Source of the DNA: Xylanibacter ruminicola 23
GTDB taxonomy: Bacteria > Bacteroidota > Bacteroidia > Bacteroidales > Bacteroidaceae
Direction of reading: 5' to 3'
DNA length: 32,000 nucleotides
Assembly: GCF_000025925.1 (NCBI RefSeq)
Contig: NC_014033.1
Location: forward strand, 2,640,001-2,672,000
The first letter of the stretch is position 1. Each line of letters opens with the position of its first letter. Of the stretch, positions 6,868 to 30,157 are shown in pieces. The position numbers were made by a program, and so were the translations under genes. A model generated the notes under the pieces. It worked only from the letters and a program-made list of their open reading frames with translations, was not told the DNA's origin and made no database searches.

Positions 6868-6883
6868 TGATGAAAGAATAGTT

Positions 6884-7243
6884 ATGGCTGCACATAATGA
6901 GTTAGGGAAATGGGGCGAAGACAAAGCCACCGAATACCTACAGCATCATGGCTATCGTATAATAGAACGCGACTGGAAGTCGGGGCGTCGGGATATCGAC
7001 ATCATCGCCACAGACGGTAACGAAGTGGTATTTGTTGAAGTCAAAACCCGTCGCAACCGATTGTTCGGTGACCCTGAAGAGGCTGTCGACTACCGTAAGT
7101 TACAGAATCTCCGTCTGGCCATCAACCACTACATTAAGTACCGCCGTATCAACAGCGATGTTAGGTTCGACATTATTACTGTAGTCGGCACGATGGGTCA
7201 GCAACCAGAAATAGATCACATCAAAGATGTACGATTATATTAG
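6884..7243 (+). CDS. YraN-family (UPF0102) endonuclease-like protein
   Basis: 119 aa with GYRIIERDWKSGRRDIDIIA...VVFVEVKTR, the typical restriction-endonuclease-like core of YraN. Confidence 0.8.
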   Translation: MAAHNELGKWGEDKATEYLQHHGYRIIERDWKSGRRDIDIIATDGNEVVFVEVKTRRNRLFGDPEEAVDYRKLQNLRLAINHYIKYRRINSDVRFDIITVVGTMGQQPEIDHIKDVRLY

Positions 7244-7246
7244 AAG

Positions 7247-8014: not shown

Positions 8015-8021
8015 TAGAGCT

Positions 8022-9263: not shown

Positions 9264-9285
9264 TTATATATAAGGAGGGAACAAA

Positions 9286-11370: not shown

Positions 11371-12332
11371 ACTGTTTTATCAACGTAGAAGACCTCGGCC
11401 CATTGGATAAGGCGATGGCCGAAGCATTTGAGATTAAGAACGATCGTTACAAGTATCAGCATCTGGGTAAAAACAAGACCCTGATGATGATTTTCTTTAA
11501 TAATTCGCTCCGCACCCGTCTCAGCACCCAGAAGGCAGCAATGAACTTAGGCATGAATGTGATTGTGCTTGATGTAAATGCCGGTGCATGGAAGTTGGAA
11601 ACCGAGCGTGGTGTGATTATGGATGGCGACAAGAGCGAGCATCTGCTTGAGGCTATTCCAGTAATGGGTTGCTACTGCGACTTGATTGGTGTACGCTCGT
11701 TTGCCGGACTTACCGACCGTGAGTACGACTATGCCGAGACCGTGCTGCAACAGTTCATCAAATATAGCGGTCGTCCCGTATTTGCAATGGAAACAGCTAC
11801 AGTTCATCCCCTACAGGCCTTTGCCGATCTCATCACCATCGAGGAGCATAAGGTAGTAGAACGTCCAAAGGTAGTCCTCACTTGGGCACCTCATTGCCGT
11901 GCATTGCCTCAGGCTGTACCTAACTCGTTCGCCCAGTGGATGAACGCCGCTCCCGATGTTGACTTCGTCATCACCCACCCCGAGGGTTACGAACTCGATC
12001 CAAAGTTCGTAGGTAATGCCCGCGTAGAGTACGATCAGAAGAAAGCTTTCGAGGGTGCAGATTTCATTTATGCAAAAAACTGGAGTAACCCAGGTGTAAC
12101 AAACCTTGCCGATTATGGAAAGATTACCAGCAAAGATATGTCGTGGACAGTTGACACAGAGCACATGTCATGGACAAACAATGGTAAGTTCATGCACTGT
12201 CTGCCCGTTCGTCGTAACCTTATTGTAACAGACGATGTGATTGAGAGCCCCAACAGCCTTGTAATCCCCGAGGCAGCCAACCGCGAGATCAGCTGTTCGG
12301 TAGTTATCAAGCGCATGCTCGAAGCCCTTTAA
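11367..12332 (+). CDS. argF': N-succinyl-L-ornithine carbamoyltransferase (ArgF' type)
   Basis: Near-colinear match, from my recollection, to Bacteroides fragilis ArgF' (FFNNSLRTRLSTQKAA, GAWKLETERGVIMDGDK, FMHCLPVRRN, PEAANREIS). It lacks the DxxxSMG motif of classical OTCases. Confidence 0.88.
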   Translation: MNCFINVEDLGPLDKAMAEAFEIKNDRYKYQHLGKNKTLMMIFFNNSLRTRLSTQKAAMNLGMNVIVLDVNAGAWKLETERGVIMDGDKSEHLLEAIPVMGCYCDLIGVRSFAGLTDREYDYAETVLQQFIKYSGRPVFAMETATVHPLQAFADLITIEEHKVVERPKVVLTWAPHCRALPQAVPNSFAQWMNAAPDVDFVITHPEGYELDPKFVGNARVEYDQKKAFEGADFIYAKNWSNPGVTNLADYGKITSKDMSWTVDTEHMSWTNNGKFMHCLPVRRNLIVTDDVIESPNSLVIPEAANREISCSVVIKRMLEAL

Positions 12333-12357
12333 CCGCAAGCAACAATTCCCGATAACA

Positions 12358-12387
12358 ATGCCCCGCGTCATCAGCGGCGCGGGGCAT
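12358..12387 (+). terminator. GC-rich hairpin downstream of argF' (no clear U-tract)
   Basis: ATGCCCCGCG (12358-12367) pairs with CGCGGGGCAT (12378-12387), with a 10-nt loop. It is followed by ccattacccc rather than a T-run. Confidence 0.45.
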
Positions 12388-12406
12388 CCATTACCCCAAA
12401 AACATC

Positions 12407-14386
12407 ATGAAACATTATCTATACCTTTTTGTACTTTTAACCTTGGCATTTCTCGGTAGCAACAAGATCTATGCTGATACCGACAACATAGAACAGGAAC
12501 TAGCCATGCGCGTTCAACAAGCGCAGGTAAGTGGCAGCGATTCTGACTTCTACAATGCTCATAAACTATTTCTCAACCACTTGGAGAAGAACCAAACTTG
12601 GGATAAATTCTACCGTGCTTGGATGAACCGCGTTATTTACGATGTTAACCACAAGCACTTCCACCGTGCCTATACTGAGATTCATCGCATTACCGAAGAT
12701 ATCCGCGATCGCCATCAGGAGAAATATCTGTATATCCCCCACATGTGTCTGGGTTTCTTCTATTTCGGCAGAAACCAACCAGAAATGGGTGAGACATACT
12801 TTCGTAAGGCTCTTCAGGGAGTAGATGCCAACAAAGAACCCATATCAGTATTCAATTGCTACCTATCTTTGGCTCAAGCACTTAGCGGAAACCATCCTAC
12901 CGAGGCCATGGCATGCCTCGACAGTCTGCCAAAACAAATGCTCGATAACCCGATGTACGATAGCGGCGTGCTGGGCTTTCGTTGCATCATCGCCAACCGC
13001 CTAGGCGACCGCCAGGCATTCGACCGCTACTATGCCCGCTACGACAGTATTCGCCAGAATAATCCTGCAGGGTTTAATCCTGCCAACCTGTATCAGGTAA
13101 TGGTTTGTCATTATATGTTGAAAAACGACTATAAGCACGCTTTGGCTTGGTGCGACTCTGTTGATGTGCCGATGATGGCAAACGAGCTGCGACTGGATGT
13201 ATATGAAAAGATGGGCGATTGGCAACATGCCTTCCGTGCCGCCGAACTCAAGGACAGTTTTCAACAGATTGACGAGCGCGAGGTGCTCGAGGATGATATC
13301 ATGGATATCTCGCACGGCATCGATATGCTTCAAGCCGAACAGGAGAAAGGCGAACTGCGCCACAAGCAATTAATGTTGGGAGGTCTATTGTCTACAGTCA
13401 TCATCTTACTGCTTATAGCCATACTTATCTATCGCTATTTCAAAAATCTCAAGTTGAAAGAGCAGTTCCATGAGTTACAGGAGGCCCGCCGTCGAGCTAA
13501 GGCCGGTCAGGCTATCCGTCGTGCCTTTGTAACAACCATCTTTGAAAAGCTCAAATCACCTATCAGTTCGCTGCTAAACTATGCACGCATATTCAACGAC
13601 CCAGAATTCAAACTCAAACCCGAGGAACGCAGTAAGCGTTATCGCGATATTGTTGCTGCAGCCAAGAACATCGAATCGTTGATGGACCCAGTACTTGATT
13701 CTTACTCACGTGGCGATTTAGGAATTACTGATGAGGAGAAACGTGTTTGTCAGGATGCGCTCCGCTCGCCGTTACAGACACTGATTGGTACTGCAGAAGT
13801 TATCATCGATGCCGACGGACAGTTGCCCCACGATGAGTATATGCAGTTACGCTCAGCTATCTGCCGTGATGCCTACGATGTAGCTACATCTACCCGCAAG
13901 CTGATATTATTCAGTCTCTATGGCGATGCTTATCCTATCCCTATGAACTACGAGATTGGTCTTAACGAAATGGCACGTACCACTCTAAACAGTTACGACC
14001 AGCATTTCAAAACCCAACCCAAGAACATCGAGTTTGTAACAGATGTGGCCGACGATGTGAAGATTACCACCAATATGCTGCTGCAGGAGCTGATTAACTG
14101 CCTGCTCGACAATGTTGTAAAATATGCCACAGGCGATACGCTGCAGTTAAGCTGTCACACCCTAACCGATGGTAGCTATGCGATTGCTGTAAGCAACGAA
14201 GGCCCCACCATCCCAGCGAGTGATGCTGAGCATATCTTTGTGCCGTTTGTACGTCTGTCGCCCAACGAGCATACACTTGGCGTTGGCTTGCCATTGGCCC
14301 GATGCTTAGCCACCTCGATGGGATACACCCTCACCCTCGACACCACTTACACACAAGGTGCCCGGTTTGTGGTTAGATTAAAATAA
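12407..14386 (+). CDS. membrane sensor with TPR-like extracytoplasmic domain and a degenerate histidine-kinase (HisKA-like + HATPase_c) output
   Basis: Signal peptide and TM helix GGLLSTVIILLLIAILIY. H-box-like FVTTIFEKLKSPISSLLNYARIF has Glu where the phospho-His is expected. N-box LLDNVVKYA, G1-like VSNEGPTIP, G2 GVGLPLARCLATSMG. Confidence 0.75.
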   Translation: MKHYLYLFVLLTLAFLGSNKIYADTDNIEQELAMRVQQAQVSGSDSDFYNAHKLFLNHLEKNQTWDKFYRAWMNRVIYDVNHKHFHRAYTEIHRITEDIRDRHQEKYLYIPHMCLGFFYFGRNQPEMGETYFRKALQGVDANKEPISVFNCYLSLAQALSGNHPTEAMACLDSLPKQMLDNPMYDSGVLGFRCIIANRLGDRQAFDRYYARYDSIRQNNPAGFNPANLYQVMVCHYMLKNDYKHALAWCDSVDVPMMANELRLDVYEKMGDWQHAFRAAELKDSFQQIDEREVLEDDIMDISHGIDMLQAEQEKGELRHKQLMLGGLLSTVIILLLIAILIYRYFKNLKLKEQFHELQEARRRAKAGQAIRRAFVTTIFEKLKSPISSLLNYARIFNDPEFKLKPEERSKRYRDIVAAAKNIESLMDPVLDSYSRGDLGITDEEKRVCQDALRSPLQTLIGTAEVIIDADGQLPHDEYMQLRSAICRDAYDVATSTRKLILFSLYGDAYPIPMNYEIGLNEMARTTLNSYDQHFKTQPKNIEFVTDVADDVKITTNMLLQELINCLLDNVVKYATGDTLQLSCHTLTDGSYAIAVSNEGPTIPASDAEHIFVPFVRLSPNEHTLGVGLPLARCLATSMGYTLTLDTTYTQGARFVVRLK

Positions 14387-14426: not shown

Positions 14427-15869
14427 TTATTTGATGGCAGCCGCAATGATCTCGGCCATCTTCTTGGCCCCTTTTTCGTTGGGATGAATACCATCATCTA
14501 CCACCTTATCGCCATCGTTTAGCATCAGGGCATGCAGATCGATAATCTGTAAGCCATACTGCTTAGCTACTTCCTGCTGGATGGGGATAATCTCGTCGGT
14601 AATCACCTTATCGTTGATATTCCAACTGGGCTTGAAGGCAGGGATGGGCGTACAAAGCAGGATCTTTGGACCTGCAGGCTGAGCTGCAGCCTTAGCCTTC
14701 TTCTTACCTTTCTTAGCTGGTTGGGCAAGGTCTGGGCGCAGGGCCTTAATCATCTGTTCCAAATCCTGCCTAAACTCTGAGCCATACTGCCAGTTCTCGG
14801 GCTTCGAGTCGTTGGTGCCGAGCTTAATCACAACCACATCGGGCTTAAATGCCAAGGCATCCTTCCAGGCCATCTCGTTCATATAAGGGAAATCACCCTT
14901 GTTCAACATGGTACGTGCCGAAACACCAAAGTTCTTTACCCAGTAGCCATCACCCAGGATTCCCTGCAGTTGTGCCGGATAGCCGTACTTGGCACGCATA
15001 TCAATACCAAAACCATCAGTAATGCTGTTACCGATGCAAGCCACACGGATAGCATCCTCCTTGGGGGCAGGAATCGACTTAAGCCAGTTACCTAAGTCCT
15101 GCAACAGCTGGTCGTGATACTTAAACCACGTGCCAAAGCCAAAGCCATGATCGCCCGAAGGGTAAATAAACAAGCTGCATTCATTACCGGCATTGCGCAT
15201 AGCCGAATAATACTGTATGCCATTGGTTACCACAGGCACCAAACGGTCGTCGTTAGCGCTGATGATACAAGCAGGTGGCGTGAGATGGCTGCGAACGGCA
15301 TTCTGGGTTGAGTACTGTCCTATAAGTTTAGGATCCTTATACCCCTCTTTACCCAGAAAGTTGATGCACGACCACTTATGTGATACACGCTCATCCATCG
15401 AGATTACTGGATAGAATAGTATCGAGAAGTTAGGACGCACTTCATAAGGCGACATCGTTGAGATGACCGACGACAGATGTCCACCTGCCGAGAAGCCCAT
15501 AATGCCCACATCGTTAGGATTAATATTCCAGACCTTAGCCGAGTCGCGAACGATACGGAAACCTTGCTCCACATCTCCTACTGGAATGGTACGGTCACCA
15601 TGCGGCAAACGATAGTTTACCACGAAATAAGCGATACCCTGTTTATTCAACCAATCGGAAGCCTGATAGCCCTCATGCGTATTCGAAAGCATAGAGTAGC
15701 CACCTCCAGGCACACCAACAATGGCTCTGCCTGAGGGATTCTCTGGAAGGAAACACACCATCTGAGCCTTTCCATCATCGGACAGGTTCAACGTAAACTT
15801 CTTTGCGGTCTGCGCCTGCATGGTCATAGCCAGCATCAGCAGCCCCGTCATGAATAGTTTTCTGTTCAT
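14427..15869 (-). CDS. secreted two-domain carbohydrate esterase (alpha/beta-hydrolase + SGNH/GDSL domain)
   Basis: Signal peptide. N-terminal VGVPGGGYS oxyanion motif and GFSAGGHL nucleophile elbow. C-terminal SGNH blocks ACIGNSITDG, KLGTNDS and DDGIHPNEKG. Confidence 0.75.
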   Translation of the reverse strand: MNRKLFMTGLLMLAMTMQAQTAKKFTLNLSDDGKAQMVCFLPENPSGRAIVGVPGGGYSMLSNTHEGYQASDWLNKQGIAYFVVNYRLPHGDRTIPVGDVEQGFRIVRDSAKVWNINPNDVGIMGFSAGGHLSSVISTMSPYEVRPNFSILFYPVISMDERVSHKWSCINFLGKEGYKDPKLIGQYSTQNAVRSHLTPPACIISANDDRLVPVVTNGIQYYSAMRNAGNECSLFIYPSGDHGFGFGTWFKYHDQLLQDLGNWLKSIPAPKEDAIRVACIGNSITDGFGIDMRAKYGYPAQLQGILGDGYWVKNFGVSARTMLNKGDFPYMNEMAWKDALAFKPDVVVIKLGTNDSKPENWQYGSEFRQDLEQMIKALRPDLAQPAKKGKKKAKAAAQPAGPKILLCTPIPAFKPSWNINDKVITDEIIPIQQEVAKQYGLQIIDLHALMLNDGDKVVDDGIHPNEKGAKKMAEIIAAAIK

Positions 15870-16966: not shown

Positions 16967-17995
16967 ATGATTTCATTTGAATGTGACTACAACAACGGGG
17001 CTCATCCAAAAGTTTTGGAGAACCTGATTAAATACAACGATGCCAAACCAACCCCTTATGGTTTTGATGAGTTTAGCGAACGCGCCAAAGAGCGCATCCG
17101 TGTAGCATGCGGATTGCCCGATGCCCAGATATTCTTCCTCACCGGCGGCACCCAGACTAATGCCACCACCATCGACTCGATGCTGTATCAGTACGAGGGT
17201 GTGATTTGTGTTGGCAGCGGTCATATCAACGTACACGAGGCTGGTGCTGTAGAGTTCACCGAGCACAAAATCATAACCATTGCCGATAATAATGGTAAGA
17301 TGGAAGCCAAGACACTCGACAAGTATCTCGACGACTATATGCACGACGGCAACAAGGACCACGCTGTACACCCAGGATTGGTTTACATCACTTTCCCCAC
17401 CGAGTTTGGAACTCTCTACACAGCAAAGGAACTTGACGACATCTACCAGGTATGTCAGCACTACGAGATACCGCTTTATATAGATGGTGCCCGTTTGGGC
17501 TATGGACTGATGGCCGAAGAGAACGATATCACCCTGCCCTACCTGGCCCGTCACTGCGATGTTTTCTATATCGGTGGAACTAAGATTGGTGCCCTTTGCG
17601 GCGAGGCTGTGGTATTTACGCACCAGAATGCCCACAAGCATTTCTTCTCTATCCAGAAACAGCATGGTGCCGTGATTGCCAAGGGCGCCTTGATAGGCTT
17701 GCAGTTCGATGCGCTGTTTACTGACGACCTCTACTTCAAACTCTCAGAACATGCCATCAAGATGGCTATGCGCATGAAGCAGATATTCATCAAGAAAGGC
17801 TTCGAGTTCTATGTCGACTCACCCACCAACCAGCAGTTTGTAATTATGGACAACACACTGGTTGAGGCACTGAGTCAGAAGATGAAGTTCACTCATTTCG
17901 GTCAGGCCGACAAATACCATACCATCTGCCGTTTCGTAACCAGCTGGGCCACCACCGAAGAAGAATTAGACGAATTAGAGAAGATACTCGGATGA
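16967..17995 (+). CDS. threonine-aldolase / beta-eliminating-lyase family PLP enzyme
   Basis: N-terminal FECDYNNGAHPKVLENL, FLTGGTQTN, PLP-lysine region FYIGGTKIGAL. 342 aa. Confidence 0.75.
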   Translation: MISFECDYNNGAHPKVLENLIKYNDAKPTPYGFDEFSERAKERIRVACGLPDAQIFFLTGGTQTNATTIDSMLYQYEGVICVGSGHINVHEAGAVEFTEHKIITIADNNGKMEAKTLDKYLDDYMHDGNKDHAVHPGLVYITFPTEFGTLYTAKELDDIYQVCQHYEIPLYIDGARLGYGLMAEENDITLPYLARHCDVFYIGGTKIGALCGEAVVFTHQNAHKHFFSIQKQHGAVIAKGALIGLQFDALFTDDLYFKLSEHAIKMAMRMKQIFIKKGFEFYVDSPTNQQFVIMDNTLVEALSQKMKFTHFGQADKYHTICRFVTSWATTEEELDELEKILG

Positions 17996-19398
17996 AGAAC
18001 CTATACTATAAATATTACCCTACAGCCGCAATTATTCTCTGCGCCATTATCATCTGGTGTTTCTTTCAGTTCTGGTATCCCTATCACTTCTTTTTCCAAG
18101 AGCAGAACCAGATATTCCTTTGGTCGTGGGATTATATCTCCACCTATACTGATAAGTCAGGTGGATTGGCAGGTCTTGTGGGTGATTTCCTCACGCAGTT
18201 CTATTACTACCTGTTTGCAGGCTCCACAATCCTCACGGTTTGTCTGCTCATCATAGCTGGCTTGCTTTACCAGTCGCTTATCCACTTCAAGGTCAGCAAA
18301 ATTGTGACCCTTGCATTGACACTGTTTGTGATGGTGTTCGTGGCCGTATGCCATTTCAGCACCAGCTATCGCCTCTCATCTACAATCTCTATCATGGGAT
18401 GGCTGCTCTTATTATGGGGGGTATCAAGCATCCGAAAAAACGCCCTGAAGCTGTCGGTATTAGCTTGTGGCCTGCTCCCCTGTTATCTGCTATTTGGCAG
18501 TCCTGTCATCAAGCAATTGCAGATGCCAGATCTGGTTTTAGAGAAGGATTTTGCTGTCGACTGCGAATACCACTTTGGCCATTACGATAAAGTGATACAG
18601 ATGGTAGAAGGTCAGGACCGATGGACCGACCAGATGGTGTTCTTCTACAACCTGGCACAGGCACAACGCGGTAAGCTGCCCGACCACCTACTCAAGTTCA
18701 CTCCTACCCAGTTGGGAACCTTCTACAAGATTGGTCCCGAAACGCCAATGCTGATTATCCGTAACATGAACGAGCTGTATTGGGCCTTAGGCGATATGAC
18801 CTTTACCGAGCGTGCAGCCATGATGACGAACGTGTTCTCGCACAACAACCGTAACGTGCGAATGATGCAACGTTTGGCCGAGTGTAATTACGTGAGTGGT
18901 GATTCGTTAGCAGCCGAGAAATACCTGCGTATCCTCGACAAGACATTGGTATATGACCGTTGGGCCGACAATGTCCGCAAGAATGGCAAAACCATCTATC
19001 AGCAGAAGATGCAGATGGTAAATCGCCACGACACCATATCGACAACCGACAATGCCCACCTGCTCATGATGCAGTTGCTCAATGCCAATCCGAACAACAC
19101 CATAGCCTTGGATTACATTCTGTGCAGCACACTGGTATTAAAGGATATTGCCAGCTTCAAGCGCGATTACGACCGCTATTGCATCGACACCAACAACCCA
19201 CGATTAAAGACACTCTACCAGGAGGCACTTTGCATTTGGCTGGCTGGTACCGACGCACCACAACAAGAGTGGGAGAAATACATCAAGCGCGGCGATGTCT
19301 TCCAGCGTTTTCAACAGTATAACCAACAACGTGGTAATGCCAATTTCAAGGACACCTATTGGTATTACTTTGATAAGATAAAAGCACCTGAAATATGA
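17992..19398 (+). CDS. polytopic membrane protein with C-terminal helical-repeat domain, paralog 1 (short form; resembles uncharacterised family DUF6057, unverified)
   Basis: About 5 hydrophobic helices. Shared N-terminal signature FWYPYHFFFQEQNQIFLWSWDY...GGLAGLVGDFLTQFYY and C-terminal AEKYLRILDKTLVYDRWA. ATGA overlaps with both neighbours. Confidence 0.8.
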   Translation: MKNLYYKYYPTAAIILCAIIIWCFFQFWYPYHFFFQEQNQIFLWSWDYISTYTDKSGGLAGLVGDFLTQFYYYLFAGSTILTVCLLIIAGLLYQSLIHFKVSKIVTLALTLFVMVFVAVCHFSTSYRLSSTISIMGWLLLLWGVSSIRKNALKLSVLACGLLPCYLLFGSPVIKQLQMPDLVLEKDFAVDCEYHFGHYDKVIQMVEGQDRWTDQMVFFYNLAQAQRGKLPDHLLKFTPTQLGTFYKIGPETPMLIIRNMNELYWALGDMTFTERAAMMTNVFSHNNRNVRMMQRLAECNYVSGDSLAAEKYLRILDKTLVYDRWADNVRKNGKTIYQQKMQMVNRHDTISTTDNAHLLMMQLLNANPNNTIALDYILCSTLVLKDIASFKRDYDRYCIDTNNPRLKTLYQEALCIWLAGTDAPQQEWEKYIKRGDVFQRFQQYNQQRGNANFKDTYWYYFDKIKAPEI

Positions 19399-20801
19399 AA
19401 AAATTACTTAACCTACTCACTATACTGATAGTACTTACCTCTTGTACACCCACCCCTGAGAATGTACAGGAGAGCAACACTCTACCACCTATTTATCCCG
19501 ACTACTGTGATGTAACTATTCCACAGAATATAGCCCCGCTCAACTTTCTGCTGCGTGCCGATTGTGAAGCCATCGAGGTAAAGGCTAGCGACATCACCAT
19601 CAACACCCGTGGCAACGAGGCCGTATTCGACATCGACGATTGGAAGGCCCTGTTGCAACAATCTGCTGATAAGAGCATAGAAGTGAATGTCAGTGCCCTT
19701 ATCAACGGGCAGTGGACGGCCTACAGGCCCTTCACCTGGCAGGTAGTAAGCGACAAGGTGGATCCCTATCTCACCTACCGTCTCATTGAGCCCGATTACG
19801 AGATATGGAACAACGTACAGATTCAGCAACGCTGTGTAGAGAACTTCGACGTAAACGCCTTAGGACATTACGAGAAGTTGGAAAACCGCTGCATGAACTG
19901 CCACACGTTTGCCAACCAGAACCCACAGCTATCCATGATGTACGTTCGTGGTCCTGGCGGCGGTGCCATCCTGAATGAGAACGGCATACTCAGCAAGCTG
20001 AACATCCCTGGCAGTGTTTACTTCGGATTCAGTCCCACTGGCCGCTATATCACCTATTCTACCCAGAAGATTATTCCCGCTTTCCATAGCGACCCCAGCA
20101 AGCGATTAGAAGTGTACGATTCGGAGTCGAATGTATGCGTGGCCGATATGCAGGAGCATCGTATCTTTACCTCACCATTGCTTTCCGACAGTCTGAAGTT
20201 CGAGACATTCCCTACCTTCTCGCCCGATGGCAAGTACATCTACTACTGTGCGGCCGATAGTGTGAGTCTGCCTCACGACATCAAACAGTTGCAATACAGT
20301 TTGGTGCGCATCGCCTTTGACGAGAAAACGGGCACCATCGGCACTCAGGTAGATACACTCTACCATCAGCGCAGTGTATGCCATCCACGTGTCAGCCCCG
20401 ACGGTCAATACATTCTTTATACCGTAGCCGACTACGGCACCTTCCCCATCTGGCATCCAGAGGCCGATTTGCAGATGATGAACCTGCAAACGGGTAAGAT
20501 TGATACACTTAGCATCGTGAATAGTGCCAAGAGCGATACTTATCACTCTTGGAGCAGCAATAGCCGCTGGTTTGTGTTTGCCTCGAAACGCGACGACGGT
20601 CTGTATGGCAAACCCTACTTCTGCTATATTGACAAGCATGGTAAAGCCCACAAGCCTTTCTGCCTGCCACAGGCACATCCTTCGTTCTACGACAACAATC
20701 TGAAGTCGTTCAATGCGCCAGAGCTAGGTAAAGGCAAGGTGCCGTTCGATGTTGAAGATGTGGCCAAAGCAATGAAAAAAGAATCCGTGACCTTTAAATA
20801 G
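19395..20801 (+). CDS. lipoprotein with CxxCH motif and PD40/TolB-like beta-propeller repeats, paralog 1
   Basis: Lipobox LTSC, LPPIYPDYCDVTIPQNIAPLNF, CMNCH (19890-19904), PD40 repeats FSPDGKYIYY and VSPDGQYILY. Confidence 0.85.
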   Translation: MKKLLNLLTILIVLTSCTPTPENVQESNTLPPIYPDYCDVTIPQNIAPLNFLLRADCEAIEVKASDITINTRGNEAVFDIDDWKALLQQSADKSIEVNVSALINGQWTAYRPFTWQVVSDKVDPYLTYRLIEPDYEIWNNVQIQQRCVENFDVNALGHYEKLENRCMNCHTFANQNPQLSMMYVRGPGGGAILNENGILSKLNIPGSVYFGFSPTGRYITYSTQKIIPAFHSDPSKRLEVYDSESNVCVADMQEHRIFTSPLLSDSLKFETFPTFSPDGKYIYYCAADSVSLPHDIKQLQYSLVRIAFDEKTGTIGTQVDTLYHQRSVCHPRVSPDGQYILYTVADYGTFPIWHPEADLQMMNLQTGKIDTLSIVNSAKSDTYHSWSSNSRWFVFASKRDDGLYGKPYFCYIDKHGKAHKPFCLPQAHPSFYDNNLKSFNAPELGKGKVPFDVEDVAKAMKKESVTFK

Positions 20802-20817
20802 TCACGGATTCTTTTTT
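20775..20817. terminator. bidirectional intrinsic terminator shared by the convergent module operons
   Basis: A6 (20775-20780), GAATCCGTGAC (20781-20791), 9-nt loop, GTCACGGATTC (20801-20811), T6 (20812-20817). It overlaps the last codons of the + gene and the stop codon of the - gene. Confidence 0.8.
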
Positions 20818-22285
20818 ATTTCACCTTCGTTTCAACACGTTGATCGGAAGCTATTTCACGACCGGCATTGTAAGCGTCGAAAACAACTTTTGTTTTGGTA
20901 AAGTCGGGTACGTTAAACGAGAAAATACTTTCCTCGTAGTACTCTTTCGGATGTCGCTGAGGCAACAGGAATGGTTTTGAGAAGTGTCCTTTGTCATCCA
21001 CACAAGCCAGATAGAGATGACTATAAAGTCCATCGCCACGGCGACTGGTAAAGACAATCCAGTGCGAGTTTACATTCCAGTTGTGATAGCTGTCGGCCTT
21101 CTCGCTGTTTATCTCCTTCAACTCGCGCGCTTCACCCGTTTGCAAGTTCAGCAGCCACTGGTTACTCTCCTGGTGCCAGATTGAGAAGTAGCCGTAATCC
21201 ATCAGCGTAAACAGGATGTACTTGCCATCGTACGACGGACGGGGCCAAGTCAGACTCTTACCCATCGCCACCGCATTAAAGATGGTATCCACCTTCTCGC
21301 CGTATTTACCTGTAGCGGGGTCGAATGCAATCTTACACAGGTTGTACTTCTCGTCCTTATAATGCATAGGGTACTCCTGCTGCTTGCAAGTCATGTAATA
21401 CAAGGTTTTACCATCAGGCGAGAATACAGGTGAGTTCTCACTCCAATCGGGTGTCGATAGCAGCGAGTCCTTAATAATCTCATGAGTAGCGGGATTATAC
21501 ACAAATACATCGCTCGACAAGTCGAACACCTCAATACGTTCATGAGCAACCATATGGAATCCCTGACGCGTCTGGTTAGTAGAGAAAGCACAGTATTTGC
21601 CACTGGGGTGCCAGTAAGGATACACCATCGAACCACCTAACTGCTCGTTGCTGGCCTTCAGCCATTCACGCTGACCATCTATCTGGAACATGGTTGCACC
21701 ATGATCGCCACGAACATGAAACACAAATTTGGATGGATCTGTTTGGCGCGCCGAATGACAGTTCACACACATACCAGGCACCTGAGTATTCTCGATAATG
21801 GGATACTCATCGAATGTAGCCAGGTCGCGCTGATAGAGTCCCATCTTACTGAACACCTCGTAGCCTGGGGCTATACGACGATAAGTCAGTCCCCATTCAT
21901 CAAGTGCATAGGTACTTACGTTTACCGTAAAGTTGTTATACTGCTGCCACTGACCGTCCTTTCTGGTACAAACTGTAAACGTCAGTTGTCCGCCTTTGTT
22001 CTGCTGGGTCAGCTCATGCCAGTCGGCAATATCAAAGTCGGCATAATCGCCCTGCACGCGCAGCTCGCCCCCCTTACTGCCTTTTACCACCACATCCACA
22101 CAGTCGGCATCAGGACAATCAAAATTCAGGGGCGCCATCTCTGCAGGAATGGTGACACCGATATAATCAGGGTAGATATTGGGCAGTTGATCAACCTTCG
22201 ATACATTCTCAGGAGTTGAGTTACAACTGGTCATCAGCCAACACCCAACACTAATCACCCAACACCAAATAGTATTCTTCTTCAT
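20816..22285 (-). CDS. lipoprotein with CxxCH motif and PD40/TolB-like beta-propeller repeats, paralog 2
   Basis: The start is set at MKKNTIW (22285), which gives an ATGA overlap with the upstream stop; the ORF-track Met at 22309 would add 8 aa. Lipobox LMTSC, CVNCH (21755-21769), FSPDGKTLYY, SYDGKYILF. Confidence 0.85.
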   Translation of the reverse strand: MKKNTIWCWVISVGCWLMTSCNSTPENVSKVDQLPNIYPDYIGVTIPAEMAPLNFDCPDADCVDVVVKGSKGGELRVQGDYADFDIADWHELTQQNKGGQLTFTVCTRKDGQWQQYNNFTVNVSTYALDEWGLTYRRIAPGYEVFSKMGLYQRDLATFDEYPIIENTQVPGMCVNCHSARQTDPSKFVFHVRGDHGATMFQIDGQREWLKASNEQLGGSMVYPYWHPSGKYCAFSTNQTRQGFHMVAHERIEVFDLSSDVFVYNPATHEIIKDSLLSTPDWSENSPVFSPDGKTLYYMTCKQQEYPMHYKDEKYNLCKIAFDPATGKYGEKVDTIFNAVAMGKSLTWPRPSYDGKYILFTLMDYGYFSIWHQESNQWLLNLQTGEARELKEINSEKADSYHNWNVNSHWIVFTSRRGDGLYSHLYLACVDDKGHFSKPFLLPQRHPKEYYEESIFSFNVPDFTKTKVVFDAYNAGREIASDQRVETKVK

Positions 22286-23958
22286 TTTCCAACCATTAAA
22301 TAATACCAAAGTGTATTCTTGAACTTAGCCAACTCAGGGGCCTGCTGATTGGCAGAATAGATACTTGCGAACTCATTCATTTGCTGCAGCATAAACTGAC
22401 TCAAGATGCCCTGTGGCGGCTGTTGCCTCTTCTGCATAAAGGCCAAGGCAATACCCTCCTGAATATGGCGGGGATTATACTGTACTCTACTCTGGACTAC
22501 AGGCGCATACTGCATAAAACGGGCGATATCCTTATCCATCAGCGGCATCATCAGCAGATACTGTGCAGCCACCATGTTGCTGGTGTTATGCATAAACAGC
22601 AGTCCACAGATTTTATCCAGTTCCCTATCGCTGAACAAGATGTCGTCCTGCAAGCGATACTGACGCAGTGTACCATACAGTGGGTGCTCGTTAATGGCCT
22701 TCTCGTCACCCAACATAGCTAACGTACGCTGTGCCCAAGGGCGGTAGAACACGGTTTTCTCCAACATCTTCAGATATTTCTCGGCCACCTTGTACTCACC
22801 GTTTATCAGATTGGTCTCAGCCAATCGCTTCACCACACGTGCACTCTTATTATAGTTAGGAATAGCCTCCATCGCCTCGAAAGCCAGTCGCTGGGCGGTA
22901 TTCACCAATCCCAAATTAAAATAGATTTCCCCAGTCAACTGCGTCGTAGCAAAATTACGCTCAAACTTAGGCAGTAAGCCCTCCGAACCACGCTGGAAAA
23001 AGTCGAAAGCCTTATCGCCAAGCTGGTTTGTCATTGCCAGTGCCAAATTAGTGGCACTCACGCTCATCGGCAAATCAGGCGTCTTTTTCTCGGCCTTGGC
23101 GATAATATCGTTCCAATCACCTATACGCACCAGATAGTCGTACTCCATCAGTTCGTATTTCTTAGCATCAAAACCAAATTGCTGGGGTACCACAACCAAT
23201 ACAGCTAACAACAAAGCCTCACCAGTCAGCACCCATGTCTTTGGTTCAGGCAAACGCTTGGTCAGCCATCCTAACAACAGCACCACCACTGGAATTGCCA
23301 TCAGTACGTAGGGCAATGTCACTGGGATACGGTAGTAACTGATGCCTAGCATCACCCTCATCATTGGGAATGGCAGATAGTGCGCACTCAGCAACATCAA
23401 GGCCAATGCGTAAATGACAGATAGTGGCATCATCCATACAGCCACCATCAGCACCAGCGGACCTATCAGCCAATAAAGAATGGGGATCAAGATTACCACA
23501 GCCACCACCTTGGCCACTATGTTTTGTGGTGCCAGCTTTGTCCATGCAATCATCACAGCCAAGGCCATTACCAGTGCCACAGCATACGTCAGCATCACAC
23601 TCTCGTCGCCCATGGCAAACCATAGCATGGCTACTGGCATAAAGCTCAGTATGTAATGACTCTTCACCTTCATCAATCGCCACGTAAGGCGTTGTATCAG
23701 CATATACAGCACGGCTATGATGGCTGCACCTATGGCAACACCATTGTAGAATTGCACCAGGAACTCAGCCACGTATCGTGCCAAGCCACCAGGCTCCGAC
23801 AGACGATCTATAAAGTAGTCGCCATCAAACAAGAACAGTTGTAACTGCTCCTGATAGGTAAGCGCAAAGGGATAGCGGTAGCTCCAGAACAGGAATACCG
23901 ACACGCCTACCACCAGCGTTACAAGCCACGCCCACTGTTTATTGCTTAATTTCTTCAT
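22282..23958 (-). CDS. polytopic membrane protein with C-terminal helical-repeat domain, paralog 2
   Basis: The start is set at MKKLSNKQ (23958) because it aligns residue-for-residue with the paralog 3 N-terminus (FLFW at residue 22 in both). Signature YPFALTYQEQLQLFLFDGDY...GGLARYVAEFLVQFY. About 9-10 hydrophobic helices. Confidence 0.8.
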   Translation of the reverse strand: MKKLSNKQWAWLVTLVVGVSVFLFWSYRYPFALTYQEQLQLFLFDGDYFIDRLSEPGGLARYVAEFLVQFYNGVAIGAAIIAVLYMLIQRLTWRLMKVKSHYILSFMPVAMLWFAMGDESVMLTYAVALVMALAVMIAWTKLAPQNIVAKVVAVVILIPILYWLIGPLVLMVAVWMMPLSVIYALALMLLSAHYLPFPMMRVMLGISYYRIPVTLPYVLMAIPVVVLLLGWLTKRLPEPKTWVLTGEALLLAVLVVVPQQFGFDAKKYELMEYDYLVRIGDWNDIIAKAEKKTPDLPMSVSATNLALAMTNQLGDKAFDFFQRGSEGLLPKFERNFATTQLTGEIYFNLGLVNTAQRLAFEAMEAIPNYNKSARVVKRLAETNLINGEYKVAEKYLKMLEKTVFYRPWAQRTLAMLGDEKAINEHPLYGTLRQYRLQDDILFSDRELDKICGLLFMHNTSNMVAAQYLLMMPLMDKDIARFMQYAPVVQSRVQYNPRHIQEGIALAFMQKRQQPPQGILSQFMLQQMNEFASIYSANQQAPELAKFKNTLWYYLMVGK

Positions 23959-24595
23959 GTGTATCGGCATTCATCGTTACCACACGTCCATCAGGATACT
24001 TACGCTGATAGGTTAAGGGGAACATATCCTTCAGGAAATCATGCAGCACACCCTCCTTCATGTTCTTAGCCATCTGACGGGTATAGTTTTTATATACCAG
24101 ATGGAAACTGTCGGCACGCTGTGCAATGTACTTAGCCTGCACGCTGTCACCTTTCGACTGCAGCTCGGCCACATACCTGCGCATCTTCATCAGCTCGCGG
24201 TTATGCATCTCGGTACGCACCTTCCATTTCTCCAACGAGTCGTTCTGAGGAGTACCAGTAGCATGACTCACACTATCAATGATAACCTTCACATCACCGG
24301 GCTCGCCTATCACCAAGAGCGACTGAACACCCATTCGGAAACGCAAATCAACCAATATCTTATACAACTTCGACGAGTCGGTAGTAAGCTCAAACTTACC
24401 ATCCTTAATCTCCACACTATCCACCGTATTAGCATTCTTCTCACCATAGAAGGGTACCAAGAAGATGCGTTTGCCCTCAAACTTCTCGTCGGGCACTACA
24501 CCGTGAATTCTACATTCATTTGCATTCTTGGGCTGACAGCTATAAAACATTGTCATAGCTGTAGCTGCCATAAAACATAAAAGAATCTTTTTCAT
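23939..24595 (-). CDS. lipoprotein with DUF4369-like N-terminal domain and no thioredoxin domain
   Basis: Lipobox MFYSC. IHGVVPDEKFEGKRIFLVPF...DSVEIKDGKFELTTD resembles the beta-sandwich that precedes TlpA-like thioredoxins in Bacteroidota. No CxxC is present. The C-terminal half is helical. Confidence 0.65.
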   Translation of the reverse strand: MKKILLCFMAATAMTMFYSCQPKNANECRIHGVVPDEKFEGKRIFLVPFYGEKNANTVDSVEIKDGKFELTTDSSKLYKILVDLRFRMGVQSLLVIGEPGDVKVIIDSVSHATGTPQNDSLEKWKVRTEMHNRELMKMRRYVAELQSKGDSVQAKYIAQRADSFHLVYKNYTRQMAKNMKEGVLHDFLKDMFPLTYQRKYPDGRVVTMNADTHEEIKQ

Positions 24596-24597
24596 TG

Positions 24598-26085
24598 TTA
24601 TCTAATTTTTACTTGTATTCGTTGATTGTCAAAAACATGCTTGTTGATCTCGCGAGCATCCACATTAACTTTACCCTCGGTAAAATCTATGCAGTTATAC
24701 GAGTCCATCTCTTCAAGATAGTATTTACGTGGATTACGCTGAGGCAACAGGAATGGTTTTCCTGCACGTCCCTTATCATCGATAAAGGCGATATACGGCA
24801 TGCTATACACACCATTTTCTCTACGACTAGAGAAAACAAACCAGTGACTGTTCAAACTCCAATTATGGAAACTCTCAGTATCATCACTATTCGCACCTGA
24901 CAACGGATGTGTCTCGCCTGTCTGTAGGTTCATCAACCAAAGATCCGCCTCAGGATGGTTCACAGGGAAGTTACCGCAGTTGGTAACATTAAACATCAAC
25001 CACTTGCCATCGTACGATGCACGTGGATAAGTAAAGCTCTTATCCCATTCACGGGCATTCAACAACGTATCCACATGGTCGCCATAGGTGCCTGTTTTAG
25101 CATCGAACGCGATTTTACACAAACTGTATTTCACCTTATCCCATTCTGCTGGTACACGGTATGGCTTGGCTGTACAATAGAACAAGGTCTTTCCATCAGC
25201 CGAGAAAGCAGGATAGGTTTCCCAATCGTCGGTCTGCAACAGTGGGCAAAGCACTAATTCGTTAGTACGGGTATCAAGCACCAGTACATTGCTAAAGGTG
25301 TCGTATACCTCAATACGCTGTCCAGTTCCGACAAAGAAGCTCTGGTGGATAGAGTTAGTTGAGAAAGCACAATAGTCTCCATCGGGATGCCAATAAGAAT
25401 AACTGGTATTGGCCACGGTACTATCGGTTTTGGTTGTCAGATATGATTGTTTACCATCTTTGTATATCAAGGTTCCGCCATGTTCACCTCGAATCTGCAT
25501 ATTAAAGGTGTTTGGATTAGCATGGTTAGCCACATGGCAGTTCATACACTGACCAGGTAGCACACTCTCGGCCAAAATAGCCGACTCATCGAAACTATGT
25601 ATGTCACGCTGATAGATACCAATGTCGCCCCCCACCTCATAACCTGGTGCGATACGGCGATAGGTAACACCATACTCATCAAGACGATGCTTACTGACAA
25701 CCATTTTAAAGTCCTGATACTGCAGCCACTGGCCGTTCTTTTTCACACATACAGTAAACACCAGTTCGCCACCGGCGTTCTGTTCTGTCAGTTCATGCCA
25801 GTCGTCCATATTAAAATCAGCCCAGTCGCCGTTGGCATGCAGTTCACCACCCTTCGACCCTTTCACCACGACATCCATACAGTCGATATCCTCTTCTGCA
25901 AAATTAAAATCCATGGGAGCAATATTCGCAGGAATCGTTACCCCGATGTAGTCGGGATAAATAGCAGGCAACTTATTCACCAAGGTAGGGTTGGTGGGAC
26001 TTTCACTGCACGACGAGCCTGCCATTGCTAACAGCCAGCAACAAACGGCCAACAGTTGATATCTGATATTAATGCGCTTCATCAT
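24598..26085 (-). CDS. lipoprotein with CxxCH motif and PD40/TolB-like beta-propeller repeats, paralog 3
   Basis: Lipobox AGSSC, LPAIYPDYIGVTIPANIAPMDF, CMNCH (25534-25548), FSADGKTLFY, SYDGKWLMF. The start is 26085 or 26082 (MMKR/MKR), overlapping the upstream stop by 17 or 14 nt. Confidence 0.85.
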   Translation of the reverse strand: MMKRINIRYQLLAVCCWLLAMAGSSCSESPTNPTLVNKLPAIYPDYIGVTIPANIAPMDFNFAEEDIDCMDVVVKGSKGGELHANGDWADFNMDDWHELTEQNAGGELVFTVCVKKNGQWLQYQDFKMVVSKHRLDEYGVTYRRIAPGYEVGGDIGIYQRDIHSFDESAILAESVLPGQCMNCHVANHANPNTFNMQIRGEHGGTLIYKDGKQSYLTTKTDSTVANTSYSYWHPDGDYCAFSTNSIHQSFFVGTGQRIEVYDTFSNVLVLDTRTNELVLCPLLQTDDWETYPAFSADGKTLFYCTAKPYRVPAEWDKVKYSLCKIAFDAKTGTYGDHVDTLLNAREWDKSFTYPRASYDGKWLMFNVTNCGNFPVNHPEADLWLMNLQTGETHPLSGANSDDTESFHNWSLNSHWFVFSSRRENGVYSMPYIAFIDDKGRAGKPFLLPQRNPRKYYLEEMDSYNCIDFTEGKVNVDAREINKHVFDNQRIQVKIR

Positions 26086-27667
26086 TGTCTTCGTTTTTAG
26101 TTTTCTGGGCCATCATTCTTTTTACATATGCGGCATAAGGCGATCCTGGCACATTACCTTGCTTTTGAATACACATCATGGCATCCTGATAGCCGATAGG
26201 CATCTCGCGATAGCCACTGTATTTCTCAGCCATGGGCATATACTGTTGGAATCCTTGCATCTGACCTTCCAACAGCATCTGTCCCATAAAGTATTCCAGT
26301 GCCATCGTGTTCTGCGTATTATTCATAAATAGTAAACCGAACATCTTATACAGTTCCAGATGACTATACAGGAAATCGTTCTTATAACGCAACTGGCGCA
26401 GTTTGCCGTACACGGGGTGTGCATCAATGGCAGCCTCATCACCTAACAAAGCTTCGGCATTAACAGCCCATTCACGATAAAACATACTTTTTTTCAGTAA
26501 ATCAAGATGTTTCTTGGCTGTTTTGTAATGCCCATTTACAATCATGCATTCGGCTATTCGCTTGGTACAACGCCCACTCATGCTACCATCCAGAATCGAT
26601 TCCTGTGTATCAAAGAAATAACGCAAAGCCGAATTGACCATACCCAGTCGCCAAAAGGTCTCTGCCGATGGCAGCATCGAGGTTAAGTCGCGAATACGGG
26701 GCATAATGAGCGCATTCTCATCACTCTGATAAAAGTCGAACATCCTATCAGCCAACTGATGCTTTTGCGACAATGCCAGGTTGACACAAACCGAACTGAA
26801 AGCCGTCTTTACTTGATATTCTTTAGCACGCGTCACTATCTCATCCCAGCGTTCATGGCGCACCAGGTAATCCTGACGAATCAGTTCGTACATCTCTTTA
26901 TCATAGCCTTTGCTGATGCCTAAGAAACACAAAGCGATAAAGACAGCCGCTTGCACAGGTAACAGCCACTTAGCCGAAAGGCATCGACGCTGCACTACCA
27001 TCGTAAATACTGTTACCAGCGGAGTCAGCCACATTAGCGTTGGCATCATCATCGGCGTGCGATAATATTGGGCAGGCATCATGGTCATCTCTAAAGTCCA
27101 CTGTGTGAGGCAGAAACGATAAGCCAGCAACTGCAAAGCCAACAGATATAAGGGCATTGGCCAGCTCTTCCATCCGTAACGGTGCATACGCAACAGCACA
27201 TACACCCAAGCCAACGGCCCCGTCAACCAATATATAATAGGTATAAGAGCCGCCTCACACCATGCCTGCTTGCCCCATTTAACAGAATTCAGTCTGTGAG
27301 CGTCAACTGCTAATATCAGCGCCACCACATAGCCCAACTTGACACTAGGATCGCCCAACAGCCAGAGCACGAGTGCTGCAGGAATCCACCCAGTGGTACA
27401 CCCCAGAGCCACGAAGAGCAGTGAGAGTAACAGGGCCCCCAGCCACTCTATATAATAGAATTGCACGATAAACTCGCCTATCCAACTGGCAAAGCCACCT
27501 GGTACACTGAGTCTATCTACAAAATAATCACTCGTCCACAGAAACAGTTGGTACTGCTCCTGATACGACATGGCGTGCGGGTATGCTATATACCAAAACA
27601 AGAATACGCCGATGCTGATTAGCACTGACAAGGCTATAGTTCCGTATTTAGTTATCGTTTTATTCAT
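26069..27667 (-). CDS. polytopic membrane protein with C-terminal helical-repeat domain, paralog 3
   Basis: Signature FLFWYIAYPHAMSYQEQYQLFLWTSDY...GGFASWIGEFIVQFYY. C-terminal AKKHLDLLKKSMFYREWA and HPVYGKLRQLRYKND are colinear with paralog 2. Confidence 0.8.
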   Translation of the reverse strand: MNKTITKYGTIALSVLISIGVFLFWYIAYPHAMSYQEQYQLFLWTSDYFVDRLSVPGGFASWIGEFIVQFYYIEWLGALLLSLLFVALGCTTGWIPAALVLWLLGDPSVKLGYVVALILAVDAHRLNSVKWGKQAWCEAALIPIIYWLTGPLAWVYVLLRMHRYGWKSWPMPLYLLALQLLAYRFCLTQWTLEMTMMPAQYYRTPMMMPTLMWLTPLVTVFTMVVQRRCLSAKWLLPVQAAVFIALCFLGISKGYDKEMYELIRQDYLVRHERWDEIVTRAKEYQVKTAFSSVCVNLALSQKHQLADRMFDFYQSDENALIMPRIRDLTSMLPSAETFWRLGMVNSALRYFFDTQESILDGSMSGRCTKRIAECMIVNGHYKTAKKHLDLLKKSMFYREWAVNAEALLGDEAAIDAHPVYGKLRQLRYKNDFLYSHLELYKMFGLLFMNNTQNTMALEYFMGQMLLEGQMQGFQQYMPMAEKYSGYREMPIGYQDAMMCIQKQGNVPGSPYAAYVKRMMAQKTKNEDNDEAH

Positions 27668-27799: not shown

Positions 27800-30157
27800 A
27801 TGAAGAAAACATTGTATGCATCACTGGCAGCAATCATGCTTGCCATGCCAGCTAATTGTTTGGCAACCAAATTCCTTGGAGTTAAAGTTATCGACAAAGA
27901 TTATCTGATGTTGCACTTCCGCGATGGCGAGGTGCATTATCGCGACAACGGCACAGGTCCCAGCGCCTATTTAGGTCACTCGTTTGCCGAAGGCGACGAT
28001 ACCCTATTGGTATTCGGCGAGCGTTTGAAAGCAGCCCAGGCACAGAACGCCGCTTTGTGGAAGATCAGCTCGTCCGACGACAAGACCTTTGCTACAGCGC
28101 AACCCTTAGCCGTTTGGCGTAAATCCAAGCCAATGAACACCGACAATACACTGACAAGCGAGTTAGACCATTGGCTGTTTTTGCAGATGCCTAAGGCCAT
28201 GAAACAGGGCTGCACATACAAAGTTGCCATCCCCGCAGGCATAGGCTCCGACAAGACCGAGGCCTCTATCCGCTTCGACGTATGGAACAACCAATCCGAA
28301 GCCGTACACATTAATATTATAGGCTATTCGCCCTTAGAGACCATTCATGCTGCCGACCTTTACCAGTGGTTGGGCGATGGCGGACAGCGCGACTATAAGC
28401 AGCTGGAGGGCAAAGGCGTATGGCTTTACAATGTGAACACCAAGAAGAAACAGAAGGTGGGTACCGTCAAATTCTGGCAACCTGCCTCAGCAGCCGCCAA
28501 GGAGGCAGGTGGCAAAAGCCTCATCGGCACCGATGTGTGGAATATCGACTTCAGCGCCAACAAACCTGGTTGCTACCGATTGGTAGTAGAGGATGTAGGC
28601 TGTAGTATGGATTTCGAGGTAAAGAACGACATTTACTACGAGCCTTATCGCTACTCGGTTCGCGGTTATTACTATATGCGTTTGGGTGAGCCTATCAATA
28701 CCGACAAGGTCTTCCCTGCCCCTCGCCAGCCACAGTTCATTCCCGAGACCGATCCTAAGGGATTTACCGTTTATAAGACCGACTTCCACCCATGGAGCCC
28801 AGGCTGGGCAGAACTGCACACCGACGTATGGGACGAGCCACACTTCAAACAACTCAAACAGTCAATCTTCTGGCAGCACCGTCTGCCGGGTAATCCGGTG
28901 AATACCGAGGTGAAAGGCGGGCACTCCGACGCCTTCGACTGGGACCGCCACCTGGCCCACGTCAGCAACATCTACGACATGCTGTTGCCTTATATCCTCT
29001 CGGGGGGACGTTTGAACGAAGATCAGTTAGGTATCCGCGAGAGTGGTAATGGTATCCCCGACCTGATTGACGAGGCCCGCAACGAGGTAGATTTCTTCCT
29101 CTCTATCCGCGATGGCGAGGCTTACTCACAGGGTGTCACCAACCCTTGTGCCGACTGGAGCGTGATGTTCCAGGCAGGCTGCACCACCATGGCAGCCTGG
29201 GCCAATGCCGCCAACTGCGCCATCATTGCCGAGGCCTTCAGATTGAACGGCAACGACAGCCTGAGCCAATACTATACTGCCGAGGCTATCAAGGCCTTCC
29301 GCTTTGCCTCAAAACAAGACCATCAGCAGCTCGACGACCTGCAGGATGTGGGCTCCATGCAGATGCGTGGTCGTGACTTCCGTCAGATGGCAGCTGCCTT
29401 CCTGTACAACCTGACTGGCGAAGAAGAGTGGGAAAAGATTTTTGCCGAAGAAAGCATGATAAAGAGCCCTCACTCATTGGTGTTCAGCAAGGGCAAGCAC
29501 GGTTTCTTTGGGGTAGGTGTGATGCATGAGGAGAATAAGAAGTTGGTGCCTTTCTGCCAGTACTGGGCAGCAGCAGCCTATCTTACCTGTCCACAGCCCC
29601 GCCACTATGGCGAGCTTTACCAGAACCTGAAAGCCAGTATCAAAGCCCAGGCCGAGGCTTATAACTATGGTCACATGGCACAGCGCCCCAGTCGCCGTTC
29701 GGCCAACGACGACCGTTGGCAAACCTCACAGAACCTGCAATTGGTAATGCTGGCCCACTACATCGCCAACAAGGCAGAGCGCAAGCAGTTGGAGCACGCC
29801 ATGTTCACCGAAGCCAGTTGGGCTTTAGGTCGCAATCCTGGTAATATTGTTGAGATGACAGGCCTTGGTCAGCGTCACATCACCGATGTCTATACCACCG
29901 GTCGCAACGATGGTGCCCCAGGCACCCATCCTGGTCAGACACCTTTCAACGGTACCGAGACTTGGTCGCCTGGTCATAATGGTGGCGATGCCCGTGTTAT
30001 CCTGGCCTATTGCTATCCCGATTGGAACAATGGTGGTTGGCCCCGTCAGGAGTCGTACTTCAACCAGCGTTACTTCTGGGTAAACGGCGAGTTCACGCCT
30101 CGCGAAACCATGCGTGGCAAGATGGCCCTCCTGGCCTATCTCTACGCCATTCGTTAG
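27800..30157 (+). CDS. glycoside hydrolase family 9-like enzyme with an N-terminal Ig-like domain
   Basis: Signal peptide. GH9-like blocks KGGHSDAFDWDRH (compare GGWxDAGD), NGIPDLIDEARNEVDFFLSI, and C-terminal WVNGEFT (candidate catalytic Glu). The assignment is by motif memory only. Confidence 0.55.
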   Translation: MKKTLYASLAAIMLAMPANCLATKFLGVKVIDKDYLMLHFRDGEVHYRDNGTGPSAYLGHSFAEGDDTLLVFGERLKAAQAQNAALWKISSSDDKTFATAQPLAVWRKSKPMNTDNTLTSELDHWLFLQMPKAMKQGCTYKVAIPAGIGSDKTEASIRFDVWNNQSEAVHINIIGYSPLETIHAADLYQWLGDGGQRDYKQLEGKGVWLYNVNTKKKQKVGTVKFWQPASAAAKEAGGKSLIGTDVWNIDFSANKPGCYRLVVEDVGCSMDFEVKNDIYYEPYRYSVRGYYYMRLGEPINTDKVFPAPRQPQFIPETDPKGFTVYKTDFHPWSPGWAELHTDVWDEPHFKQLKQSIFWQHRLPGNPVNTEVKGGHSDAFDWDRHLAHVSNIYDMLLPYILSGGRLNEDQLGIRESGNGIPDLIDEARNEVDFFLSIRDGEAYSQGVTNPCADWSVMFQAGCTTMAAWANAANCAIIAEAFRLNGNDSLSQYYTAEAIKAFRFASKQDHQQLDDLQDVGSMQMRGRDFRQMAAAFLYNLTGEEEWEKIFAEESMIKSPHSLVFSKGKHGFFGVGVMHEENKKLVPFCQYWAAAAYLTCPQPRHYGELYQNLKASIKAQAEAYNYGHMAQRPSRRSANDDRWQTSQNLQLVMLAHYIANKAERKQLEHAMFTEASWALGRNPGNIVEMTGLGQRHITDVYTTGRNDGAPGTHPGQTPFNGTETWSPGHNGGDARVILAYCYPDWNNGGWPRQESYFNQRYFWVNGEFTPRETMRGKMALLAYLYAIR

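Follow-up and report, generated by a model that had tools for sequence, protein, structure and literature searches.

In the c-type cytochromes the heme-attachment motif Cys-x-x-Cys-His (CXXCH) lies at a helix of a recognisable domain that also has a conserved distal ligand, and in cytochrome f, a beta-rich protein with a CANCH motif, the third motif position is Asn. Beta-propellers usually hold their ligand, cofactor or active site at the top of the central channel: cytochrome cd1 nitrite reductase (NirS), which has a separate helical cytochrome c domain, carries a non-covalent heme d1 there on an eight-bladed propeller, and the propeller enzymes PON1/DFPase and CuZ of nitrous oxide reductase bind metals at the ends of their innermost strands. 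TolB and other PD40 proteins (e.g. Atu1656, PDB 2OJH) are periplasmic and contain PD40 repeats. Here we analyse three paralogous propeller lipoproteins encoded in 32,000 nucleotides of the rumen bacterium Xylanibacter (Prevotella) ruminicola 23 (contig NC_014033.1, positions 2,640,001 to 2,672,000, forward strand; this whole stretch is the window, and coordinates below refer to it), each of which carries a C-x-N-C-H motif and is coupled to a DUF6057 membrane protein.

With the c-type cytochromes these lipoproteins share the C-x-x-C-H spacing, an invariant His, Sec export and an invariant Arg that could hold a heme propionate, and with cytochrome f the Asn, but heme here is no more than a candidate, and the domain, the helix at the motif and the conserved distal ligand of the cytochromes have no counterpart in sequence or model. 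The resemblance to NirS would be that of a heme protein on a beta-propeller with its cofactor at the top of the channel, whereas the N-terminal domain of the lipoproteins is a predicted beta-sandwich, their blades number about six and the CXXCH falls within a blade. They have the PD40 repeats and the periplasmic location of TolB, although the TolB N-terminal domain is missing and TolB is without a CXXCH. Like the metal-centre propeller enzymes (PON1/DFPase, the oligogalacturonate lyase 3PE7 and CuZ of nitrous oxide reductase), they have conserved polar residues that would start the innermost strands and face the channel top, although the ligand sets differ and homology is limited to the propeller fold; to our knowledge, Cys-x-x-Cys-His is not a ligand set in PON1/DFPase, oligogalacturonate lyase or CuZ enzymes. 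In Pfam the three lipoproteins match PD40 repeats only (PF07676, E = 2.7e-16 to 1.6e-05), NCBIfam gives sub-threshold matches to TolB, PorE and Dpp5 propellers, and the precomputed labels PF26549 and PF26550 on their homologues denote Tricorn propeller families. The repeats, together with the roughly six four-stranded blades of the model described below, place the proteins in the PD40 beta-propeller superfamily. They belong to no described cytochrome family nor to TolB, an identity that was rejected on score (28.1 bits against an equivalog cut-off of 343) and on context (no tol-pal genes).

Lipoprotein 1 (19395..20801, forward strand; 468 amino acids), defined by its open reading frame and translation, a PD40 match and an AlphaFold model, is identical to ADE82241.1 / WP_013064228.1 and comprises a lipobox Cys17, a beta-sandwich at the N-terminus and a roughly six-bladed PD40 propeller; residue numbers throughout are those of this protein (lipo1). 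Lipoprotein 2 (20816..22285, reverse strand) has 489 amino acids when read from the ATG used in NCBI records, its open reading frame running beyond this ATG up to a TTG at 22309, and lipoprotein 3 (24598..26085, reverse strand) has 495; both match PD40, and pairwise identity among the three is 39-40%. Translation and alignment bore out the CXXCH motifs listed for these paralogues in the preliminary description: CMNCH in lipoprotein 1 (C166-H170, context NRCMNCHTF; 19890..19904, forward strand), CVNCH in lipoprotein 2 (context GMCVNCHSA; 21755..21769, reverse strand) and CMNCH in lipoprotein 3 (context GQCMNCHVA; 25534..25548, reverse strand), with C166, N168, C169 and H170 sharing alignment columns across all three. 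Arg185 of lipoprotein 1 (19947..19949, forward strand), which is invariant and lost only along with the motif, aligns with Arg codons at 21710..21712 of lipoprotein 2 and 25489..25491 of lipoprotein 3 (both reverse strand). The signal peptides are lipoprotein signals of the Sec type, with a lipobox Cys and no twin-arginine motif, and Cys17 is kept in 136 of 145 representatives. Depositors named the three proteins 'PD40 domain-containing protein', 'TolB family protein' and 'lipoprotein', while one annotation source names them 'cytochrome c biosynthesis protein' or 'cytochrome c-binding protein', so the motif had already been noticed by an annotation pipeline.

Conservation of the motif extends far beyond the window. 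C-x-N-C-H is carried by 170 of 172 homologues from 77 genome loci (Prevotellaceae, Bacteroidaceae and Rikenellaceae), the two others being truncated open reading frames, and C166, N168, C169 and H170 are found in 167/167 full-length homologues of the 77 genomes; the orthologue alignment proposed earlier as a check on CXXCH thus upheld both Cys and the His throughout. A profile search of 1.84 billion representatives (clusters at 50% identity) retrieved 3480 clusters at E <= 0.001 and 684 at E <= 1e-30, and exactly one C..CH is present in 141 of the best 150 cluster representatives, five of the nine misses being fragments. Only six columns, R129, C166, C169, H170, R185 and W392, are invariant in an alignment (A2) of 123 full-length relatives with 31-56% identity to lipo1. 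Since the middle Asn is sometimes Gly, His or Ser while C..CH is retained at constant spacing, what is conserved at the core is precisely the heme c signature. The chance expectation, calculated from the Cys and His composition of 1782 neighbouring open reading frames, is about 0.006 C..CH per 470 residues, and a chance origin of the motif is excluded.

Other residues that could complete a site are less constant. Cys57 is invariant in the three paralogues, yet it is not conserved more widely among the 167 full-length homologues, which makes a Cys3His zinc site that uses this residue unlikely, and we rejected it. The preliminary description had put forward the conserved His of WHP.G or WH(P/Q)E as distal heme ligands; neither proved obligatory. 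Paralogue 1 itself has Ser at H213 (WHPxG), and 12 motif-bearing clusters carry a replacement there; conservation of H354 (WH(P/Q)E) is below 90%, and H384 is replaced in 13 motif-bearing clusters, so each of the three was rejected as an obligatory distal ligand.

Four full-length representatives (P0177, P0182, P0220 and P0245, from loci that include L078, L079 and L082) are without the motif, and what they have lost along with it delimits the site. They are 28-33% identical to one another and each 37-48% identical to motif-bearing members, and their being nearer to motif-bearing members than to each other argues for four independent losses. Both Cys and the His are replaced in three of them (P0245 retains a Cys at 169), and N168 and R185 are replaced in all four, while the remainder of the fold stays conserved. 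Loss of R185 separates the two groups completely (4/4 motif-less vs 0/144 motif-bearing, p = 5e-8), and losses of Y209 (3/4 vs 3/144, p = 1.5e-4), F350 (3/4 vs 9/141, p = 0.0017) and N440 (3/4 vs 11/139, p = 0.0029) are likewise associated with loss of the motif; R129, H213, H384, E270 and K420 are lost independently of it. These alignments identify the motif as the unvarying core of one functional site in the family. Conservation and joint loss point to C-x-x-C-H plus Arg185 as the functional unit, with Y209, F350 and N440 as its likely surroundings. The motif-less lineages are natural site-less variants and would be useful as controls.

AlphaFold2, run on the 123-sequence alignment, gave a model of lipoprotein 1 with a mean predicted local distance difference test score (pLDDT) of 95.9 and a predicted template modelling score (pTM) of 0.93, whereas a single-sequence AlphaFold model of paralogue 2 reached a pLDDT of 35 and was unusable. 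In the model a signal helix is followed by a beta-sandwich that ends near residue 120; the propeller spans residues ~125 to 445, and from the strand list we divide it into about six four-stranded blades, closed by the C-terminal strand (438-445). An N-terminal domain of ~150 residues followed by a propeller, as the preliminary description had it, is therefore roughly right, but the motif, which it had placed before the propeller, is predicted to lie inside it: strand 166-173 would be the innermost of blade 2, with 176-185 as its hairpin partner, and would take the place of the 'P-x-F-S-P-D-G' strand of the other blades. The segment that precedes the motif is modelled as the beta-sandwich plus the first propeller blade, which does not fit the heme domain fused to a propeller that had been proposed. 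N440 (blade 1), Y209 (blade 3), E270 (blade 4) and H384 (blade 6) map in the model to the same end of the innermost strands, and R185 and F350 to loops on the same face as the motif. Mapped in this way from the predicted secondary structure, the site would lie at the mouth, or top, of the central channel.

C, C and H are conserved and lost as a unit with Arg185, and the proteins are Sec-exported, a necessity for c-type cytochromes; all this is what a covalent heme site would lead one to expect. The single best reading, which we hold tentatively and at slightly short of even confidence, is that the products of all three genes are periplasmic lipoproteins of new architecture, each with one c-type heme. 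The protein would be exported unfolded via Sec and then lipidated at Cys17, and the system II machinery of the host (CcsBA/ResBC) would couple heme covalently to both Cys166 and Cys169, His170 serving as the proximal ligand. The heme would sit on the top face of the PD40 propeller, where the central channel opens, and there Arg185 could hold a propionate and Tyr209, Phe350 and Asn440 of neighbouring blades could pack against the ring. It would be five-coordinate or loosely ligated, because no distal ligand is strictly conserved, and this would suggest a catalytic or ligand-binding role and not that of a simple electron carrier. We also envisage that the lipoprotein works one-to-one with the DUF6057 protein, whose C-terminal helical domain would occupy the same compartment. 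The wider proposal that these pairs form an unrecognised hemoprotein class, in which heme c is carried directly on a PD40 blade and, with DUF6057, makes up a two-part inner-membrane/periplasmic redox or ligand-sensing machine tied to polysaccharide use in the dominant Bacteroidales of rumen and gut, is rather doubtful, though worth entertaining.

A number of results weigh against covalent heme at this site. The covalent-heme signature claimed in the preliminary description holds at the level of conservation, unit-like loss and Sec export, but neither a cytochrome fold nor the helical turn was found alongside it: residues 166-173 are modelled as a beta-strand, not as the helical turn of known CXXCH sites, albeit in an apo model. 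A regular strand would turn Cys166 and Cys169 to opposite faces, and they could not share a heme without local remodelling. The strand conformation does count against a classical heme site, though weakly, as the model is cofactor-free. Among motif-bearing members no distal heme ligand is strictly conserved. No cytochrome family was matched in Pfam or NCBIfam at E <= 0.1; searches of PDB sequences with the three-sequence and 123-sequence profiles found PD40/TolB-type proteins only and no heme-bearing relative at the site (motif-level matches to cytochromes, at E about 1, were not significant); and Foldseek against the PDB returned generic propellers only, with template modelling (TM) scores <= 0.41, including NirS (TM 0.31-0.36) and the manganese-binding oligogalacturonate lyase 3PE7. 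No CcsA-like open reading frame with a WWD motif occurs within 10 kilobases of the 77 family loci. The DUF6057 partner is retained in the two motif-less loci checked (P0177 and P0245), and the pair can therefore function without the site. Literature searches with DUF6057, the protein accessions, the cytochrome c-binding names and ruminicola cytochrome c biogenesis found no paper or experimental report on the family.

Some of these points can be set against others. According to the model, either the apo structure is locally wrong or C, C and H do not act on one ligand, and their equal invariance and joint loss favour the former. C169 is as invariant as the other two although a strand would turn it away, and we infer that C166, C169 and H170 probably act together in a non-strand conformation. 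As for maturation, the product of nrfA is a multi-heme c protein. A rumen metagenome study found nrfA to be encoded mainly by Prevotella and Bacteroides (PMC12918512), and Bacteroides thetaiotaomicron has ccsA/ccsB beside nrfAH, plus further ResB/CcsA pairs (PMC10434189); both papers indirectly support a capacity for heme c in Prevotella/Bacteroides.

The same evidence bears on what else the motif could be. A metal centre (Zn, Fe, Cu or similar) at the channel mouth, formed by the Cys/His of blade 2 and ligands from neighbouring blades, would suit the predicted clustering of N440, CxNCH, Y209, E270 and H384 at the N-terminal ends of successive innermost strands, the position at which PON1/DFPase and CuZ of nitrous oxide reductase bind theirs; the manganese-binding 3PE7 is among the top Foldseek matches, and no helical turn is modelled at the motif. 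We nevertheless consider a metal centre unlikely, if a serious contender. Strict coupling is limited to C, C, H and an Arg, which is no metal ligand, and there is no invariant fourth ligand, with Cys57, H213, H384 and E270 all varying in motif-bearing proteins. C..CH on one ion would be unusual, yet it is the exact heme c signature, and the regular strand that speaks against a shared heme would likewise keep the three side chains from reaching a single metal ion.

The strict coupling of Arg185 to the motif would suit a cofactor-free, thiol-based catalytic or redox site, in which a reactive Cys or a CxxC pair would be aided by His170 and Arg185 on what is, in the model, the presumed substrate face of the propeller; an Arg coupled to a reactive Cys is typical of peroxiredoxins and low-molecular-weight phosphatases. 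CxxC redox sites, however, lie at the N-termini of helices in thioredoxin-like folds, where this motif is not placed, a redox pair does not need an invariant His right after the second Cys, and Pfam and NCBIfam gave no similarity to any thiol oxidoreductase family; we regard such a site as improbable. That the residues are purely structural, packing between blades with no bound group, would agree with a motif modelled as a regular strand buried between blades, but buried Cys and His should have turned into Ala, Ser or Val somewhere in ~145 divergent clusters, and instead they are invariant and, where lost, disappear en bloc with Arg185 from an otherwise conserved fold. We give this explanation very little credence.

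All three lipoprotein genes of the window show translational coupling to a gene directly upstream that encodes a DUF6057 polytopic membrane protein. DUF6057 membrane protein 1 (17992..19398, forward strand; 468 amino acids; PF19529, E = 4.8e-133) has a stop codon that overlaps the start of lipoprotein 1 (ATGA), and ATGA also joins DUF6057 membrane protein 2 (22282..23970, reverse strand; 562 amino acids; PF19529, E = 5.3e-171) to lipoprotein 2, while DUF6057 membrane protein 3 (26069..27667, reverse strand; 532 amino acids; PF19529, E = 6.3e-121) shares 17 nucleotides with the start of lipoprotein 3. The pairing recurs at nearly all 77 loci and also in remote and motif-less members, and DUF6057-propeller fusions exist, including the P0167 cluster of 35 members (968-1067 amino acids). 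No hydrophobic segment separates the DUF6057 C-terminal domain from the propeller in these fusions, so the two share a compartment, the periplasm. DUF6057 has an invariant E-Q-x-Q-x-F-L just past its first membrane helix, and in the C-terminal helical domain Arg, Lys, Glu and Tyr residues are conserved as a set; no solved relative was found. Across 127 homologues neither a WWD motif nor any conserved His, Cys or Met is present, and DUF6057 was rejected on these grounds as a CcsBA-like heme exporter/lyase. DUF6057-1 is about 65-95 amino acids shorter than its paralogues, with fewer predicted membrane helices and a Pfam match in two pieces, and its membrane domain appears reduced.

Two flanking genes per side were scanned at 20 loci, mostly single-pair (among L045-L066 and L078), and these 75 genes are enriched in SusC/SusD, in the glycoside hydrolase (GH) families GH10, GH43, GH127 and GH115 and in carbohydrate esterases, with GH26/GH130 also present. 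The DUF6057-propeller pair thus often lies in or beside polysaccharide utilization loci, and this association is the best lead to its function. In the rumen and in many human guts Prevotellaceae are dominant, and the family is large (the 684 clusters above), triplicated in X. ruminicola, accompanied almost without exception by an uncharacterised membrane protein and frequently located in glycan utilization loci. Were heme attached, the site would represent a new way of building a c-type hemoprotein and would add a periplasmic redox or sensing part to fibre-degrading anaerobes thought poor in c-type cytochromes; were it metal- or thiol-based, the motif would still mark the active site of an abundant, unstudied two-protein system. 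In either case it supplies precise residues: C166, C169, H170 and R185.

Several further genes adjoin the pairs. Between pair 3 and pair 2 lies a DUF4369 lipoprotein-like gene (23939..24595, reverse strand; 218 amino acids; PF14289), which overlaps the start of DUF6057-2, holds the same position in most Prevotellaceae loci and is without the thioredoxin-like domain frequently found after DUF4369. A beta-eliminating lyase family gene (16967-17995, forward strand) overlaps the start of DUF6057-1 by ATGA and, on its position, may be co-transcribed with pair 1; a similar-sized gene occupies this place in several related loci (L024-L032). Other neighbours in the window code for a GH9 protein (27800-30157) and a GDSL esterase (14427-15869).

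On a JGI metagenome contig (L080), a remote member (10001-11587, 528 amino acids) with a DUF6057 partner is followed by a second PD40/TPR protein (12041-14344, 767 amino acids). The neighbours at this locus (ATP-binding cassette (ABC) sugar transporter, FHA and CotH genes) are unlike those of Bacteroidales, and on this basis the family may extend beyond that order.

The upstream half of the window (77-12332, forward strand) is an arginine/proline biosynthesis cluster with genes for argininosuccinate synthase, a semialdehyde dehydrogenase, an aminotransferase, pyrroline-5-carboxylate (P5C) reductase, an amino acid kinase and a carbamoyltransferase, amid which lies a gene for a SpoIIE-type phosphatase (9286-11370).

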